The translations under genes and the position numbers were made by a program. A stretch of DNA of 61,217 nucleotides, from positions 1-61,217 of the IMG/VR virus record IMGVR_UViG_3300036835_000105, one strand, 5' to 3'. The notes under the pieces are model-generated. The model was not told the DNA's origin, ran no database searches, and worked only from the letters and a program-made list of their open reading frames with translations. Positions 21,949-30,742 of this stretch are shown here, one piece after another (within the stretch, counting starts at the first letter, position 1; each line of letters begins with the position of its first letter). Origin of the DNA: a virus (Duplodnaviria; Caudoviricetes).

Positions 21949-23094
21949 TTATGCCGTGTATCCGTAGTTCGCTGATCCGCCGCCGCCAGTCACAACAGCT
22001 GGAGATGGGGCTTTGACGGGCTGGTGTTTCGCGCTACGTCCCGCATCCGACATGGGTGTCGGCAGATTGGGCGCGGTGAAGAACGGCCCCCAGGGGTTGC
22101 TGGGACTGGAGGTCGTCAACGACGTTGAGTAGAAGGTTGAAGGAGAGTTACCGTTGTTGTACTCGGTAGTAATCCAGCTTGCCGAACGAAGGCTAGTCGA
22201 TACGCGCACCTCGTCAACCACCCCGTTGAAGTTCTCACCCGAGTTAGACGAGTACCCGATATACATGTTAGGAGCCGTAAACGTCTGTAAGCTAGTCGCA
22301 CCTCCCGCCGCCGCACCGTTGATGTAGAACGCTGCTACCCCGGAGGAGTCATAGGTCAGGACTGCAAGCATCCAGGTGTTTGCGCTCCAGGTGCCCGTTG
22401 AGGTCGCAATATTAGCAATCTGCTGTTTAATAAGCTGAAGTTGAAGAAGCGCTCCATTCCAGCGGAACTGCACAGTCTGGTTTGAAGCTCCAGCGAAGAT
22501 GGACATGGAACTGCCGCTAACGACCGGATTGATCCAGGCGCTTATGGTGAAGTTGGTCGAAAGCCCCATCGGCGGCAAATAGATAGCTTGCGAGGTGTTG
22601 AAAGAACCCGCCCTTCCGAACTTCCCTAGCGCAATCGAAGGAAGAGAGACTCCGTTATTACCGGCAATCCCACTGTTGGCATTTGCAGTAGAATCCGTAA
22701 CGCTCATTCCGTAGGTGGCGGCAACATGCCAGACGCCTTTGAAGTTGCTATCCCAGACCGCCGCTGGCGTGGCCTGTTCGGTAGTTACCGCCGCGTTGCC
22801 GAATAGGATGTAGAAGGTAGTATCAGTACTTGATGAAAGAGACGGTATCTTGATGCAGAACTCACACGCTCCGGTCTGTCTGATCCACTGCACACGTTCA
22901 AAGGACAACGGCGATGCGCCAGCCGAGTCGGAAGCGAAGATAATGTCGAAGCCGGAACTGCTGGTGACCGCGCCTCCGAACGCTGTCCAGGCCAGTTGGG
23001 GGTAGATGCCAGTGAACAACACCGGGAAATTCGTTTGTGTGGACGGAACCTTGGTGTGATCGACTGTAATCGCAACCGAGTTAGCCCAGGCCAT
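21949..23094 (-). CDS. DUF2341 + LamG/concanavalin-A-like lectin tail protein
   Basis: TNFPVL...DIIF...VWDSNFKGVWH; FTISAWI...FYING...FNGVVDEVRVS. Confidence 0.85.
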   Translation of the reverse strand: MAWANSVAITVDHTKVPSTQTNFPVLFTGIYPQLAWTAFGGAVTSSSGFDIIFASDSAGASPLSFERVQWIRQTGACEFCIKIPSLSSSTDTTFYILFGNAAVTTEQATPAAVWDSNFKGVWHVAATYGMSVTDSTANANSGIAGNNGVSLPSIALGKFGRAGSFNTSQAIYLPPMGLSTNFTISAWINPVVSGSSMSIFAGASNQTVQFRWNGALLQLQLIKQQIANIATSTGTWSANTWMLAVLTYDSSGVAAFYINGAAAGGATSLQTFTAPNMYIGYSSNSGENFNGVVDEVRVSTSLRSASWITTEYNNGNSPSTFYSTSLTTSSPSNPWGPFFTAPNLPTPMSDAGRSAKHQPVKAPSPAVVTGGGGSANYGYTA

Positions 23095-23993
23095 CAGTCG
23101 TACCTCATGCACAGCATCCCAAGGTTTTGACTATTGGTAGGATTGCCGACCGCCATAAAGAAGCCGTTTTTGGATGGCAGATACGTTCTAACGGCACCGT
23201 AAACGGTAGTCTGAAAAGTCACTCCTTCCGTAACATCCGGTATCGAGATGGAACCGGCAACCGTACAGGGGTAATCGAAGTAGCCGATGCACGGGGCACA
23301 CAGATCAAATGGAATCGAGTTGTTGAACGCGAGTTGTGCACCGTTGAAGTTAGGTACACGGACATTCCACCCGTATGAAGAGTTCACACGAGCTGCGGTG
23401 TTGGGTGGCACAGAACCGACACCAAAGAGCAATGTCTGCTGCCAAGGGCCTTGTACAGAGTTCACGCCATTGCCAACAAGCCACATCGTCGCGTAACTGG
23501 CGGTCGGGTTTCCGGAAGCATCTAATGAGCGTTCGATGGCGAAGAACTGCTGGCAATTGTTCGGTCCGTTTCGCCACAGCATAATGCCAATCCTGTTGTT
23601 GGCTCCGCTGAAATTACATTCGTACTGCGTCGTTCCCGGTGCTGTATAAGCGGTTTGGACGCAGCCTATTGGACCGCAATTGAACCCAGTGATGACGCCT
23701 GCGCCGTTCGTGCTAGTTGCCAATGAAATACGGACATTCGGGCAGTTGGCGTTGGTTATATTGCCATACTCAACCTTGACGTAGAAGACAGCTAAAGCAT
23801 CGCCCGGTTTCCAAACTTCGTAGACGTAAGCGTTCGCGCCGGGAACGGCCACAATGGAAGTCCAGTCTACTTGGCCGGTATCGGCGGCTTTGACCCAACC
23901 GGCGGTAGCGAAGAAGTCCGATATAGCTTTAGCCCACTGCTTGAAGTTAGCCAGGGTCGAAGAATCGCAGACAAGCTGTTGCTGAGAGGTCAT
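23094..23993 (-). CDS. Tail-associated structural protein
   Basis: 299 aa, beta-rich, TGATG-coupled to next gene. Confidence 0.7.
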   Translation of the reverse strand: MTSQQQLVCDSSTLANFKQWAKAISDFFATAGWVKAADTGQVDWTSIVAVPGANAYVYEVWKPGDALAVFYVKVEYGNITNANCPNVRISLATSTNGAGVITGFNCGPIGCVQTAYTAPGTTQYECNFSGANNRIGIMLWRNGPNNCQQFFAIERSLDASGNPTASYATMWLVGNGVNSVQGPWQQTLLFGVGSVPPNTAARVNSSYGWNVRVPNFNGAQLAFNNSIPFDLCAPCIGYFDYPCTVAGSISIPDVTEGVTFQTTVYGAVRTYLPSKNGFFMAVGNPTNSQNLGMLCMRYD

Positions 23994-23998
23994 TTTAG

Positions 23999-25498
23999 TT
24001 ACTCCAGTTGCGCGGTGAACTGCCACGTCGCGGTACCGGATGTGATGTCAATCGAGAACACGTCCGACGCCGCGACGGTCGCACTGAGCGCGACAGTGGA
24101 TACCGTGCCGCTGGCCGTACCCGCCGCCACGGTAGGACTCGTAATCGACGTGCCGTTCTGCCTGATCGCAAACGTCAACGCCGTTGCGCCATCCGACGCC
24201 TTGGTAGTCACGACGCACTTGCTCAGTGTTCCCGCATGTGGAGCCGCCAGCATCGGCCCGACGTTTGTCCCCGTCGCTCCGTTCCCGATCACAAAGCCGA
24301 TCACCAGCGGGACCGAAGCAGCCGGGGCCGCACCATACCATGCGTTGTGCCAGTCACCGGCAACTGGGGCGTTGATGTAAGTGATGGTCGATCCGCTCAA
24401 CGTATAGTCGGTTCCCGGTAGCTGCTCCACGCCATTCAGGAAAAGCAGCAAGGATGAGGCCGGACTCGGCGCTGCGCTCAGCGTGAAGGTAGTGTTCGTT
24501 CCATTGATGGTTCCGGTGGGAACTTCTTGGGTAACAGCCGTGCCGCCACCGCTTCCTCCGGGTTTGGGTTCCCAGTCGTTATTCGCGGCTACCCAGGTCA
24601 ACACCTGACCGTCTGTCGGCGTGGCGGTAGAGACCGTCTTACCCCGCAATCCAATCACGGTCTGGCTGGTGCTCGTACCGGACAAGTCCCCGGCAAACGT
24701 CACCGCTCCGGGAATGGTCGGCTTGTTCAGGATCATCGCGACCCCGCTCACCGCGTTCCAGTCCGAGTTCACTTGCGCCGCCGGAATCACAGGCTTATTC
24801 AAGATCTGAGCCACGCCGCTCACGGCATTCCAGTCGCTATTGACCTGTGGGCCAATCCCGGCTGGCATATCACCTTGCACCAGCGCCCGAAACACCGGCA
24901 CCCCACTCCCCGACACCGGCCCCGCCCAGACCTGATTCGCGCTCTGGCTGGCCTTAGCCAACGTCAACGTCCCCGCTGTCGTAACCGGCGAACCCGTCAC
25001 CACGAACTCAGTTGGTGCCGCCAGCCCGACGCTCGTAACCGTCCCGCTTCCGCCGCCACTTCCTCCCGTGGGCGGCATCGGCTCCCACTTGCCATCACCT
25101 GCAACCCAGGTCAGCACATACGTGTCTGCCGGGGCCGTTGGCGCAACCGGGCGGCCTTGTATCCCAACCACGGTCTGGTCAACATTCGTGCCGCTCAGAT
25201 CCCCGCTGAATGTGATATCCGACGCCTGCGGCTGTGCTGCCTCTCCCGGCAGGTTCATAATGCTCAACGGATGGCTGCCCGTCGCCTGCAAGTGATCGCG
25301 CATATGGCCCGCCATCACGAATAGATCCGCCGTCGAGAAGCTGACCTTCTCGGCAATCTGCTCGCCCTGCGCCTGTGTCGTCGTGTGCAGCCGCGACACA
25401 TGATCCTCGACCCTGCGAATAGCCCGTTGGATCTGAATCGGAATGGACGCATCGGTCGTCACTGACAACCCGTTGCCATTCACCGGATGCCTAGCCAT
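23999..25498 (-). CDS. Tail fibre protein with internal repeats
   Basis: GTVTSVGLAAP, duplicated QVNSDWNAVSG and GDLSGT...VLTW modules. Confidence 0.8.
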   Translation of the reverse strand: MARHPVNGNGLSVTTDASIPIQIQRAIRRVEDHVSRLHTTTQAQGEQIAEKVSFSTADLFVMAGHMRDHLQATGSHPLSIMNLPGEAAQPQASDITFSGDLSGTNVDQTVVGIQGRPVAPTAPADTYVLTWVAGDGKWEPMPPTGGSGGGSGTVTSVGLAAPTEFVVTGSPVTTAGTLTLAKASQSANQVWAGPVSGSGVPVFRALVQGDMPAGIGPQVNSDWNAVSGVAQILNKPVIPAAQVNSDWNAVSGVAMILNKPTIPGAVTFAGDLSGTSTSQTVIGLRGKTVSTATPTDGQVLTWVAANNDWEPKPGGSGGGTAVTQEVPTGTINGTNTTFTLSAAPSPASSLLLFLNGVEQLPGTDYTLSGSTITYINAPVAGDWHNAWYGAAPAASVPLVIGFVIGNGATGTNVGPMLAAPHAGTLSKCVVTTKASDGATALTFAIRQNGTSITSPTVAAGTASGTVSTVALSATVAASDVFSIDITSGTATWQFTAQLE

Positions 25499-27138
25499 TA
25501 CATCCTCGCGCCAGTTGAGGTCCGGTTCTCGTCGCCGTAGGCCCTTACAATCTCGTACTGCTTCCCGCCCCAGGACTTGACCCGGAACTCGCAATCCCTC
25601 CGATAGATCTGCAAGGCTGTCCCGGTCCCGTACAAGCTCCATAGCTTCCCCTTGACCGGGGGCGCAACGAAATACTTCTTCACCGGATTCCCACCCGTAC
25701 CCGGCAGATTCGATATCAGCGGGTACTGCTGCCCATCGACCGTCAGGGTCAACACTCCACCGGCTGCCGTCGAGGCATACGCCAGTTGAAAGTCCCTGAT
25801 ATGCAGGAATCCCGGCATATCCCAACTGGTCGGCTGCGTCACCCAGTACCCGGTGGGTTCCGGCTCCTCGTCATAATCCCACTGGACCCCATTCAAGATC
25901 CAGTCCCCACTCCCTCCTATCGGCACCAGCCGCATCAGGTGCGCCTTGAATGGCGGAAAGCTCACCGGGATGACCGTCTCCTCCCCGTGGCTATTCACCG
26001 TCACTATCGGCCCCTTAATGCCGCCCTCATACTCAACCTGCAACTGAACGTCGTGGCCCATCGTGTCGGCCATGATCCTGGCCCCATGCACGAACTTGTA
26101 GTGCATGGTTCCCGCATCCTGCCAATCCGTTGGCCTTCCCGGCGCTCCTCCCGCCGTCCCGGTTGAACTGGTCTCGGGCTGTAAGATAGCCGCCGGTTGC
26201 CACTCATACAGCGTCACCCCAGCCGCCGAAGGGAACGCCGCCAGCAAGCCGATATTGCGGTGCCACCCATCGACATCCGTCGCGAGATCGTACTGCCATC
26301 TTGTATGCGTTAATAGCGGCCTCTGCACCGGGTCATTCAACAGGAAGTTCTCGTAATACACCGTCACCGCAACCGGCGAATCATAGGGACTCGGATCGCT
26401 GGGCGTTCCCGATATCACGCCCGTCGTGGTATTGAAGCTCAGCCCCGGCGGCAGCGTTCCAGTCAGGCTGAAGGTATAGGGCGGCGTCCCGCCTGAAGCC
26501 GGTATGGTGTGACTATACGGCGTTCCCGGCGTGGCGGCTGGCGGGCTGCCGCAGTTAATGACCAGCGGCGGTGCCGGGGGATAGTATGGCTGGAACCCGG
26601 AAGCGACGATGGAATTGACGTTGTAATCAGCCAGTGAGCGAAAGGCGATACGGTCAATTACCGCATACGTGTTGGGGTCTCCGTCATTCACATTCCCGAC
26701 GTTGCTGACGGAGCCAAGCCCTGCATTGTCGCCGTAGCTCGCAACCGAAGTGGGCCTGAATGTCCAGGTTGAGCTATCCGCGAAGGTCGCTTCGATCCAG
26801 CAGTCGTACACCCATAGCTGGCAAGGGCCGGTGATGCCGCCGAAGACTCCGCCCATGTCCATGTTCAGCGTGTCGAAGTCGCGGAACCAGAGTTCCATCG
26901 CCGCAATCTGAGCGTTGGTGAACGGTGCGCTGACCGGGCCGCTGCTGTTCTGAAGCTGGTCGGTCCTCTTCGTCCAGGCCGATACGTCATAGATGATCGG
27001 GTTCCACCCGCCACCTACTGCGGTGCTCCCTACCGTGACTTCACCGTGGCCGCCGCCGTTGATGATATGAGCTGTGACAATCTTGATGACGGTCTGGGTG
27101 GGATCTGTAATGGGTGGCGGCATATCATCCTTCGGCAA
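25498..27138 (-). CDS. Tail protein with partial He_PIG Ig-like domain
   Basis: [42 protein letters not shown]. Confidence 0.8.
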
Positions 27139-30100
27139 TCGTGCAGGTCACGTTGCTATGAACTCCTGCCGAATCCGTTACCGTAACCGTAAAGGTGTAG
27201 CTGGCCGGGTTTCTGACGCCGATATCCATCATCAGATCCCCGTACTCTTTGGTCGCTCTGGAATCGCCCTGGTCATCCGCCGGGGTCACAATCGAACACT
27301 GGAAAATCTGTCCGTCATCCGTCAGCGCCGGGTCCAGCGCATACAACACGCCATTCGTCCCGCCAGCCAGGGTCAGCGGATCAGACGCCCCTTGCTCCTG
27401 GTAATGGCAAGCCACCCCCGGCAGATACTTATACGGGCACCAGCCCTTGGTATCGACCGCCCAGGTCAGCGTACTCCACGCTCCGGTAATATCCATGTAG
27501 TCATAAAACAACATCCCGTCCGCGTAGCTCATCCGCTGCCGCTGCGGCTTCGAGTCATCCGGCGGATAGAGCACCTGCCCCGCGACCGACACCGGCAGTC
27601 CCGGTCTACTCTCGAACGGCAACAGCGGGAACAAATCATCCCTGGTGATGTTGATCGACCCGCCGGACTGGAACAGATACACCCCATCCGGCCCCCGATA
27701 GAAAATCGCCGGTCCTTCCCCTGAGATCGACCAATCCATGATCTGGCCCGCCACCGTGCCCAGCTTAAAAGCGGTGTACGGGTTGACCTGACCCGGTGTA
27801 GACTCTACACGGTACCCGGCTAAGTTACTGAAAACATAGACAGCACCCTCGTAAAACACCGGGGGTCCAAGCGGCTCACTCGGCCCCGTGACCTCGATGT
27901 AGCCCTGGTCTGAGGCTGAGTCCGGTTCATAGGGCTGGCTGAAGTACAAGTTCCCCGGATTGAACGGATCGCCGGTCGCGAAGATCCTGCCGTCCATACC
28001 CTGGCAAGCATGTGCTAGGGGGTACCCGGCAATGGTGGCTTCCGGTATCTTGAACAGCACGTTGGAGAAGCTGCCGACGTTCTCGGCCAGCTCCAGATCG
28101 CTGGTCGTATACGGACTCGCGTACAGCGTATAGGTCTGCCGATTGACGATCACCTCCACGCCGCGTACCCACGACAGGTTGAACAGGTCGCCGGTCAACT
28201 GATGCACGCGGTTGCCGATGATGTTGCACGTTCCCGACCGTGGCTGATCGGTGACCGGCCAGGGCTGGTAATGTAACAGCTCCAGCGGGTCGCCTCCCAG
28301 CGCCACGGTTTCGCGCACATCGTCCAGCACCTGGGCCGTCGCATTCGGCACCACCAGACATCGATGCCACGTATCGAACGTCCCGCCGTTGCGCTCCACA
28401 TCGATCAGGTCTACCTGCGGATCGCTGGACGCCGCCACGCTCACCAGCACCCCCGACCTCATCGCCAGTATGCCGTTGCGCGTAGCCGGTGAGACTTCGC
28501 TGAACGTCCCGGTCAGGCTGGAGCGATAGCGGTACCGATACAGAATCGGCTGACCCTGGTTGCCGTAGCTGTTGTAATTGCAGTCCGGCCCATACGTCCC
28601 GCCGATCCACCAGCCGCCGATAGAGATGGTCGCGTTACCCGTCAGCTCTACTAACACTGCCGCGCCGCGAATGTTGCTTAAGTTGGTCGAAATATCGCTC
28701 CCTACCCTGGTCAGATCGCTGACTTTGAAGATGGCCTCAAACCATTGGCCCATCCCGGCCCCAAGCTGATCGCTCACGGGTATGCCGAATTCCGGTTGCT
28801 GATAGGCCGGATAGGGATTCTGCGCGTATTGGATCTTGTCCTTCTCGACCGGGTAGGTCGAGGCGATCTGCGCGGTCAACGCATCCAGTAGCCCGCCGAT
28901 GGAGGTCTGGGTACCCTGCGCGACCGACTGGAAGTCGTTCTGCCGGACGACGTAGTAGAAGTAATTGTGCTGGAAGTCGTTGTTGCCCTGGGCGTCGATA
29001 TCCAATAAGAAATGCACCTCAGCCACATTCGCCGGGTTATCGATGGCAATGGAGACGTGTACATAATCCTCGTCCGTAATCGGTCTGCCATTGACGCCCA
29101 TGCCGTTAACCGGCCCCAGCGCGTTGTTATAGATCATGCCGGTGCCCGCCGCCGTACCGCTGAGCGTCATGACCGACTGGAATGCCTTCGCGCCAATGGC
29201 CACACCAGCCGCGTGATTCTGCGCTAGGTAGCAGCGGAAAGAGATCGGGAAGCGCAAGCTCAAGCCCGCTGTGATGCCACCCGGCACCACGTTGTCCAGC
29301 ACCCGGAAGCTGAGGGTGTTCTCGGGTCCGGTCGTCACCGACAGCACACGATGCGCGTACCCATTGATCAGGACCGTCGCATCTCGCCTCACACTCGGCG
29401 GCGGCGTGCCGGGGACGATAGTCGCAACGGAGCTGTCATCCTTGAAGACCGCCCCTACCGTTGTATTCGACAGGAACGGGAAGACATCCGTGATGGTGGT
29501 CAGCTCGTTGTCGATCACCACCCGCATCCCGATGCCCCAGCCGGTATACTCCGCGCCCGCCGAGGCTGCCTTGGGGGTCACGCAGGCCCAGCCGGTCGTG
29601 CCTGAGTCGTACACGATAGCGGATGCCACCTCGGCTGGCGTCACGCGGTCCACAATCGTCGGCGTGGCCGCCGCGCCTGACGCCGCCCAGGTTCCACTCG
29701 CGCCGGGTGCGGTGTTTAACTGAATGTCGTACACCGAGTGCGACATGTCGTCGTGGCTATCCAGAAACACCATCACCTGAATCTGGGAGCAATCCTGGCT
29801 GGTCGAAAGGGGGACCGAATCCCACTGCAAGGCCCGTGTCGGCGCGTTGTAGAGCATCGTCCAGGTCGTGCCGTTGTTGAGCGTATACCACACGCCTGAG
29901 GACCGTAACTGCCCTGAACCGCTGGTGGGCACCGACGAGTACACGTTCAGGTACAGCGAGGGCGGTGTGGCAATACCCGCAAACTGATAGATGCACCCCG
30001 CATACTTGTGCGTATGCGCGAAGGTACACGTCGCCGACGTAGCCGGATCGCCGTCCACCGCATTGCCGGGGTTGGTGTACGAGTACGTGGTGTCGTCGTT

Positions 30101-30742
30101 CAGGCCCCAATTCAGGCCCTGATCAACGCCCATCTCATATGGCCCCTCATGCGCGTTATTGCCCCAGCCGTTCAGGCTCACCGTGGGCCGCCCCAGCACC
30201 GTGCCCCCGCCCGAGGCTACGTCGAGGATCGACTGCACGTTGGGCTGCGTCAGGGTGGTACCCGGCGGCTTGATGGGCGGCGCGACTCCAATGTTCTGCC
30301 TCGTCCCATCCACCCGGAACTTCGACTGGCGGATGCTGTCATACACATACAGCCATGCTTCCGGCGACATGGGTGGCCGGTACGGCACCATCGACATCGG
30401 GTTGCCCGAATAGCCCGAATCGACCGACGCCAGTGTGCCGCTCTGGCCCCGGTACACCGATCCGGCTGATCCCGCGAAGCGGGTCCAGGTCAGCGGCACG
30501 CCTGGGATGTCGTTGTTGACCCGCGCCAGACTGTGGATGGGGTAGCCGCTGCCGGTGTCCCCAATCTTCACCAACCCGGCTCTTGAGGTAACCCCGCCCT
30601 GCACCTGATTGGGCGACAGGTTCATCATGTACGGAGTCTTGCCCTGCGGCATCAGATCCGGCGGATGCTTCAAGTCAATGCCCAGATACAGGAACTTCCC
30701 CCGCCCTGGTGCGCGTTGATACTCTTGTTGAACCTCAGGCAT
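27125..30742 (-). CDS. Large tail (nozzle/stabilisation-like) protein
   Basis: 1205 aa beta-rich; LYFSQPYEP-type propeller motif; follows adaptor genes. Confidence 0.75.

Follow-up and report, generated by a model that had tools for sequence, protein, structure and literature searches.

An Ig-like He_PIG domain divided in reversed order between two adjacent tail genes of a soil phage

Can an immunoglobulin-like (Ig-like) domain whose strands lie on two neighbouring genes, in reversed order, still act as one domain, and how would such an arrangement arise? The question is raised by the window analysed here, the complete 61,217-bp virus record IMGVR_UViG_3300036835_000105, which has direct terminal repeats and is of soil origin. 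Two of its genes, P0001 and P0002, are adjacent on the minus strand inside the tail gene cluster, and PHROGs gave a family for neither of them. The upstream gene ends with the last two strands of an Ig-like domain of the He_PIG family, and the downstream gene contains the first five:

27125..30742, minus strand: P0001, the upstream gene, an open reading frame (ORF) of 1205 amino acids (aa); main part (body) of a large structural protein of the virion or tail, to which an Ig hairpin is appended
25498..27123, minus strand: P0002, the downstream gene, an ORF of 541 aa; jelly-roll, half-Ig and old C-terminal module (C-module)
27128..27205, minus strand: He_PIG strands F-G (hairpin), P0001 residues 1180-1205, with Cys1200; Pfam profile positions 69-93 and custom profile nodes 59-82
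26392..26565, minus strand: He_PIG strands A-E (half-Ig), P0002 residues 187-244, with Cys191; Pfam and custom hidden Markov model (HMM)

The Pfam profile of He_PIG (PF05345; 96 positions, gathering cut-off 24 bits) matched P0002 residues 185-255 with positions 1-79 (E 8e-12, 45.9 bits), above the cut-off, and P0001 residues 1178-1202 with positions 69-93 (11.3 bits, E 0.5), a fragment that alone stays below it. A six-frame scan of the whole 61-kb genome gave only two He_PIG matches (E 3.5e-14 with 49.2 bits, and E 1.5e-4 with 18.2 bits), and 30 codon-shuffled copies of the genome, scanned in six frames each, contained a single match of at least 11.3 bits (11.6 bits). A custom profile of 89 nodes, built from 612 domains in 119 database hits, placed P0002 187-254 on nodes 1-69 (73.4 bits) and P0001 1179-1202 on nodes 59-82 (11.3 bits). 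On P0002, nodes 59-69 coincide with the first strand of the ancestral C-module, which is present also in Ig-less relatives, e.g., P0123; hence the Ig part of P0002 truly stops at GTPSDP (residue 244, window position 26392). The true Ig fragments abut at node 58/59, with nodes 1-58 on P0002 and nodes 59-82 on P0001, and neither polypeptide holds a complete He_PIG domain with all strands. A preliminary description of this DNA had proposed a He_PIG domain split in reversed order over the two adjacent genes, the finishing strands forming the upstream gene's C-terminus. Both profiles confirm the split, and the finishing strands indeed are P0001 1180-1205 on nodes 59-82. The front half was located correctly at 26565-26401, but it extends further, to 26392.

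Compared with natural He_PIG domains, the two Ig fragments are exactly complementary. When P0002 up to residue 244 was joined by script to P0001 from residue 1180 onwards, the product scored 103.2 bits over nodes 1-82 and was gapless at the joint, versus 78.4 bits for the cis continuation of P0002 and a median of 87.7 bits for natural domains. Furthermore, each half carries one Cys, C191 at node 5 in strand A and C1200 at node 80 in strand G. Among 459 natural domains covering both ends, Cys occupies node 5 in 13 and node 80 in 18, and both nodes in 11 where 0.5 would be expected (Fisher p 6e-16). We group domains with Cys at nodes 5 and 80 as a Cys-pair subfamily of He_PIG; this grouping is our own, and the window domain has both residues. 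The 16 Cys-pair domains include domains of the proteins P0004 and P0008 as well as both He_PIG domains of a related viral locus, L008. The disulfide that had been considered possible from one Cys in each half gains weight from this covariation and from the contact of the two residues in the complex model described below. The nearest relatives of both halves are found among domains of P0004 and P0008, proteins with the Cys pair. Within the Cys-pair subfamily the window front half is nearest to P0004/P0008 (0.62-0.64 identity), two non-Cys-pair domains of P0004/P0008 reach 0.67-0.68, and the single closest match, P0094 (0.71), lies outside the subfamily. P0008/590-677 ties as the nearest Cys-pair domain to the window hairpin (0.54), and a nearest-neighbour comparison of the halves for co-origin gave a Spearman coefficient of 0.16 in a biased hit set.

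The relatives of P0001 indicate what was split. The C-terminal 356 aa of P0001 (residues 850-1205) retrieved 28 non-self homologs with E values down to 1e-164. In 18 of them, the motif YGDLM.D is followed by a linker of ~2-25 aa and then by ...V.VYYDNFLL... and the rest of the C-module, all in one ORF; the closest fused homolog, P0123, is 74% identical over query residues 850-1205. None of these 18 fused homologs has the F-G hairpin. Five of the 28 carry other C-terminal modules right after YGDLM.D, three end later, within the C-module, and two are too distant to judge. Homology to the C-module was matched in viral loci, too, and the 16 viral loci comprise eight fused ones, one plain split (L003), one split within the C-module (L008) and six unresolved ones. 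Among isolates, the nearest are Tunturi_1 and Tunturi_2, podophages of Tunturiibacter (Acidobacteriota), whose gp32 is named a 'virion structural protein' (PMC11924767). P0001 is 26% identical to gp32 of both phages (E 4e-51), and gp32 of Tunturi_2 is one ORF of 1307 aa. Comparison with P0123 and the other fused homologs sets the bounds of what was added:

25498..26391, minus strand: ancestral C-module, encoding P0002 residues 245-541 and the stop; in 18 of 28 homologs it follows the body in one ORF
26392..27205, minus strand: inserted cassette of 814 nucleotides (nt)

The ancestral gene was thus a single ORF in which a body of ~1000 aa was connected by a short linker to a C-module of ~290 aa, and the window arrangement is derived from it, an 814-nt insert having split this gene. 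The preliminary description had suggested such an insertion and, as a check, a search for homologs in which YGDLMMD runs on into the C-module; P0123 and 17 more of the 28, together with half of the 16 viral loci, are of this kind.

Two of the viral loci are split in other ways. In L003 (5989-9890) the break lies at the same junction without any insert, the upstream gene finishes in a Gly run, the downstream gene starts with MNLNIYYDNLLL, and both overlap by ATGA. In L008, as in P0136-P0138, the C-module itself is divided between two genes. The upstream gene of L008 (6001-11736) holds the first ~70 aa of the C-module and stops after ...NIGL...W; the downstream gene of 813 aa has a new N-terminal region of ~400 aa, for which Pfam gave no match at E <= 0.1, then two complete He_PIG domains and the remainder of the module from ...LYEW.PS onwards. 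The L008 branch is thus a second kind of split beta-domain in the P0001 family. Since fused, plain-split (L003) and L008 states coexist among relatives, the body/C-module junction is a module boundary that tolerates both swaps and splits.

Some further variation was seen around this boundary. Right after YGDLM.D, P0135 has a cellulase-family domain (PF00150), P0128 a module of ~700 aa with no Pfam annotation listed, and P0132-P0134 a small domain of ~140 aa. Loci L004, L006, L009, L010 and L014, as well as P0142, have the C-module tandemly duplicated within one ORF, with two to three tblastn matches per locus. In the window, a 25-nt direct repeat of 84% identity (26206-26230 and 26356-26380) encodes the C-module strands ...GVTLYEW and ...VAVTVYY, the two places of splits in the family.

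An assembly artefact or a chimeric contig, in favour of which nothing was found, we regard as extremely improbable. A 44.9-kb contig with a depth of 158, which may be the source sample, shows no differences over 24500-29500 and spans the arrangement. Low-depth contigs from another sample and study are independent of it, identical, and bridge the left junction at 27205 and the stop/start. The same proteins occur on two to three contigs. Moreover, in a diverged strain variant, P0173 (88% identity over 157 aa), 24 of the 26 hairpin residues are conserved, the Cys among them, and the protein ends at the same residue. Neither joints, indels and loose ends at the junctions nor the joints of a circle or an empty site were found in the contigs of four runs, contigs being data that drop rare forms, and among the pieces listed none from runs X4 and X5 bridges the right junction. 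The arrangement is neither an assembly artefact nor fresh damage, and the mis-assembly that the preliminary description had wished to see checked is unlikely. Elsewhere in P0001, run X1 has a second 454-nt contig with 66 differences over window 28592-29045, beside an identical one, so a related strain co-occurs in the X1 sample.

The cassette reads, in order, Ig strands F-G, TGA, ribosome-binding site (RBS), ATG, jelly-roll, Pro-rich linker and Ig strands A-E. Both junctions lie just after a CCG (Pro) codon, and no flanking direct repeats exist at 26392/27205 beyond this shared codon (3 nt). The cassette has the GC content of its flanks and differs in GC skew. Two of its features matter in what follows:

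27121..27138, minus strand: gene boundary within the cassette, with GAAGGA at 27133-27128, TGA at 27127-27125 and ATG at 27123-27121, as read from the sequence
26575..27123, minus strand: jelly-roll domain and Pro-rich linker, P0002 residues 1 to ~183; AlphaFold2 (AF2) predicted local distance difference test (pLDDT) ~90

The frame of P0002 is that of P0001 +1, and TGA stop and ATG are 1 nt apart. The downstream gene had previously been placed at 25498-27138; its location holds, but a TTG start at 27138 is less likely than the ATG at 27123-27121 with its GAAGGA. Because no promoter-like or terminator-like site is found in 25300-27600, P0001 and P0002 are probably co-transcribed and translationally coupled. 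By eye, no obvious slippery heptamer was read at GGA TGA T ATG.

For the jelly-roll, 22 relatives of up to ~44% identity were retrieved among 1.84 billion representatives; the closest over the full domain is P0151 (41%). Most of them are C-terminal domains of small tail proteins that contain DUF2460, some lie within large tail proteins, and one stands alone (P0154, 198 aa). In a wide VIA search, matches of the fold to jelly-roll glucanases and carbohydrate-binding modules were weak (Z 5.4-6.8, the best within noise range), Foldseek gave nothing at E <= 0.001 against PDB and BFVD, and the best score in the ESM Atlas was 0.77. The profile of the large P0001 family likewise had no solved relative at E <= 1. 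P0002 pieces and P0151 matched no viral contigs, the jelly-roll alignment no metagenome or genome contigs, and P0123 no metagenome contigs; hence neither a nucleotide-level empty site nor donor DNA nor the neighbours of two further proteins, P0179 and P0004, came into view.

Judged from its genes, the phage makes two proteins, namely the body with the F-G hairpin, and the jelly-roll followed by the five-strand half-Ig and the old C-module. Do the Ig halves then fit each other in three dimensions? A complex of P0002 1-262 (with a 25-row alignment) and P0001 1165-1205 was modelled in three runs, alongside three controls. The interaction prediction score from aligned errors (ipSAE) was 0.59, 0.62 and 0.67 (median 0.62), and 0.00 for the best of the three controls; of 80 solved complexes, 58 reach this mark, and of 110 mismatched pairs only 2 do. 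At least 91% of contacts recur between the runs, with a partner pLDDT of at least 77. The predicted interface involves only half-Ig residues 184-241 and hairpin residues 1180-1205, i.e., neither the jelly-roll nor a cis strand at residues 252-257. This cis strand remains unused even though some alignment rows place complete Ig domains across it. In the residue pairs of lowest error, strand C (216-222) is paired with F (1184-1190) and strand A (189-191) with G (1198-1200), and C191 touches C1200. In the model, the hairpin thus occupies the canonical F-G slot of an Ig domain. The proposal that the halves rejoin by beta-strand complementation passed this multimer test with clean controls, which speaks for compatibility rather than binding.

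From these observations we suggest the following picture. Body and C-module would still be together in the virion as they are in one chain, comparable to L003, where they are encoded by two plain genes. Because the insert lies in a short linker, this contact, if it persists, would hold the N-terminus of the hairpin (node 59) beside the C-terminus of the half-Ig (node 58). The hairpin could then insert as strands F and G, pairing F with strand C and G with strand A to give a two-chain He_PIG domain, which a Cys191-Cys1200 disulfide probably locks once outside the cell. At the joint of body and C-module, a side arm would result, with the Ig as its stalk and the jelly-roll as its head, probably one that binds glycans or surfaces. 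The completed Ig would moreover be a clasp between the halves of the split protein, tying them together again. As a whole explanation, including both the pairing and the permuted origin discussed below, we give this two-chain Ig clasp an even chance.

Several observations weigh against it. The complex prediction is evidence of compatibility, not of binding, because the halves of a common fold can pass through their resemblance to solved Ig structures. When modelled alone, P0002 1-262 takes the cis strand 252-257 as its sixth strand in AF2, with low confidence (pLDDT 59-67), and the half-Ig may hence be partly satisfied in cis. Another protein, P0179, has the hairpin before a jelly-roll without any A-E half, which may indicate a partner-free role or a tolerated remnant, and L003 keeps its halves together without a clasp. 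Full-length P0002 was modelled poorly by AF2 (pLDDT 47.6, ~70 for residues 340-530), and all fold matches of the jelly-roll stay below Z 8 and give no function. The nearest relatives of the cassette are ~41-44% identical, none close enough to test selection, and no fused jelly-roll forms were found among proteins of more than 947 aa, which is weak evidence.

Part of this could be read in another way, in that recombination in the GTP loop left an orphan hairpin and an orphan five-strand piece without any joint function. The two proteins would then associate only via the ancestral body/C-module interface, the half-Ig would be cis-stabilised or floppy, and the jelly-roll would be the sole functional gain. 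That L003 works as two insert-free genes, that AF2 turns to the cis strand when the hairpin is absent, that the hairpin of P0179 is not accompanied by a front half in that protein, and that the He_PIG domains of P0004 and P0055 also end at GTP would all agree with such leftovers. Against them speak the retention of both members of a rare and coupled Cys pair, the hairpin kept in a strain diverged by 12%, the exact register, and the confident complex model, in which controls score zero and the trans hairpin is preferred over the cis strand. We consider mere leftovers unlikely.

How the cassette came to be permuted is the least certain part of the two-chain clasp. We assume that it is a permuted copy of a unit of jelly-roll plus He_PIG. 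Its source would be either a small gene in tandem or circular form or an array of the type He_PIG/jelly-roll/He_PIG, and both cuts would lie in the conserved GTP loop, which connects strand E to strand F. P0179, a complete protein of 848 aa of which P0151 is a fragment, is informative here. Its body is unrelated to P0001 (hhalign probability 0.9%), and in one ORF it contains a hairpin of the same kind, which begins at node 59, then a linker of PPPP and the closest full-domain relative of the jelly-roll (41%). The hairpin thus travels with the jelly-roll, and, since P0179 has both in one ORF, the cassette may originally have lacked the stop/start. Breaks at GTP are found elsewhere as well. The last He_PIG domain of P0004 (722 aa), ~70% identical to the window half in the best local alignment, stops after GTP. 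It is the fifth of a Cys-pair array and covers nodes 3-75 with 66.7 bits, versus 105-115 bits for its complete sisters; this broken domain, an orphan front half like that of the window, is fused to an unrelated C-terminal domain of 85 aa with a SRDGGNTW motif, the two together occupying residues 590-722. In P0055, He_PIG breaks off after GTP, too, at node 57. Because P0004 and P0055 also break there, the GTP (E-F) loop is a recurrent breakpoint.

According to the preliminary description, about 27205-26390 joined as a circle would encode one complete gene. This is formally exact: the cassette amounts to precisely one gene in permuted form, complete with RBS, ATG and stop; a CCG codon precedes each junction, and the ends join in a register that is exact to the codon. 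A small gene (RBS-ATG-jelly-roll-He_PIG-stop), circular or in tandem, could have recombined once, in a Campbell-style event, with the crossover linking its E-F loop to the linker of the tail gene. The length of 814 nt (3n+1) would require no extra frameshift, and a standalone small jelly-roll gene does exist (P0154, 198 aa). The small-circular-gene origin itself nevertheless looks doubtful to us, as a single ORF of P0179 joins hairpin, linker and jelly-roll to an unrelated body, flanking repeats do not exceed 3 nt, no circle joint was seen (contigs only), and no jelly-roll relative is followed by a complete He_PIG (13 of 22 by Pfam; own HMM over the collected proteins). Alternatively, the cassette may have entered in frame, as an array fragment cut at two GTP loops, and a later 1-nt change in the linker made the stop/start. 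The read-through of the equivalent linker in P0179, the frame difference of +1 with stop and ATG 1 nt apart, and the recurrence of GTP breakpoints would suit this route. It would require a ready-made RBS and ATG at the right spot, however, the diverged strain (P0173) already has the stop, and the searches with jelly-roll relatives found no such array or in-frame relative; we hence hold it to be rather unlikely, too. On the sequences at hand, three origins appear inseparable, namely the circular or tandem small gene, the array fragment with a 1-nt frame change, and some other path.

Whatever its origin, a two-chain Ig clasp would have parallels in known systems. In chaperone-usher pili, an Ig-like fold is completed by the G strand of a neighbouring subunit, donated from an N-terminal extension with the involvement of a chaperone. 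Like there, strands from another subunit would complete an incomplete Ig-like fold and tie the subunits together; in the window, however, the donor would be two strands (F-G) from a C-terminal extension, with a possible Cys pair and without a chaperone, although no search aimed at one was made. The window system would resemble donor-strand complementation in how it works, without belonging to the chaperone-usher family. SpyTag/SpyCatcher is an engineered split of the Ig-like CnaB2 domain that reassembles with an isopeptide bond. There, too, an Ig-like domain is cut into a short strand tag and a larger remainder that reassemble with a covalent lock, whereas the window case is natural and its suggested lock a disulfide. 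Circular permutation by duplication or fission proceeds by a cut through a tandem or circular copy, and the order F-G ... A-E corresponds to such a cut; in contrast, the window domain extends over two genes with another domain in between, and no tandem intermediate was found. Unlike in Campbell integration, the cassette has no repeated attachment core flanking the insert. L008 likewise has a split gene of this family, in which the C-module has gained a new N-terminal domain together with He_PIG domains of the Cys-pair subfamily, but both He_PIG domains are complete and in normal order, and the split runs through the C-module. A further counterpart is the Pseudomonas podophage A1002, whose nozzle, solved by cryo-electron microscopy, is split into gp42 and gp39 (PMC13730344). 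This is likewise a podophage tail protein on two polypeptides, with missing beta-strands supplied by the partner and canonical domains rebuilt; A1002, however, splits native propeller and platform domains, whereas in the window an acquired Ig is split, permuted around a third domain, and its pairing is predicted.

Ig accretion, module swapping and split tail proteins that exchange beta-strands are already known. The novelty lies in an acquired Ig domain whose parts, in permuted order, belong to two adjacent genes and enclose a third domain, codon-exact and with the coupled Cys kept. The literature covered, which was partial so that absence is unproven, contained no case of phage genes that share an Ig domain in reversed order. 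Phage host range evolves via shuffling of tail modules, and how newly split or decorated tail proteins assemble is seldom visible in sequence. Here the event is recorded in the sequence, with relatives that have an empty site, a codon-defined cassette, and Ig halves on two proteins; the GTP loop of He_PIG is indicated as a recurrent recombination joint. If the halves pair, domain insertion and gene fission would be possible in one step without loss of assembly, and the pair would be a natural two-chain Ig clasp and, for protein engineering, a genetically encoded, disulfide-locked tag and catcher. We may even speculate that orphan hairpins (P0001, P0179) and orphan half-Igs (P0002, P0004) together form a natural disulfide-locked plug-and-socket for exchangeable receptor-binding modules on the tails of soil phages. 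This would be a natural counterpart of SpyTag/SpyCatcher, and we think it quite improbable.

Further features lie elsewhere in the tail region. P0001 contains a second accessory domain of ~160 aa at residues ~185-345 (window 29700-30190), without counterpart in most homologs. It is shared with P0135, P0152 and P0161, of which P0152 and P0161 also have the jelly-roll; in the jumbo phage Tunturi_5, a 'minor tail protein' matches it with 41.5% identity. The next gene after P0002, at 23999-25498 on the minus strand, encodes 499 aa with tandem VNSDWNAVSGVA.ILNKP repeats and is probably a fibre; its ATG overlaps the TAA of P0002. The genes beyond it include one for a Laminin_G_3/DUF2341 protein (21949-23112).

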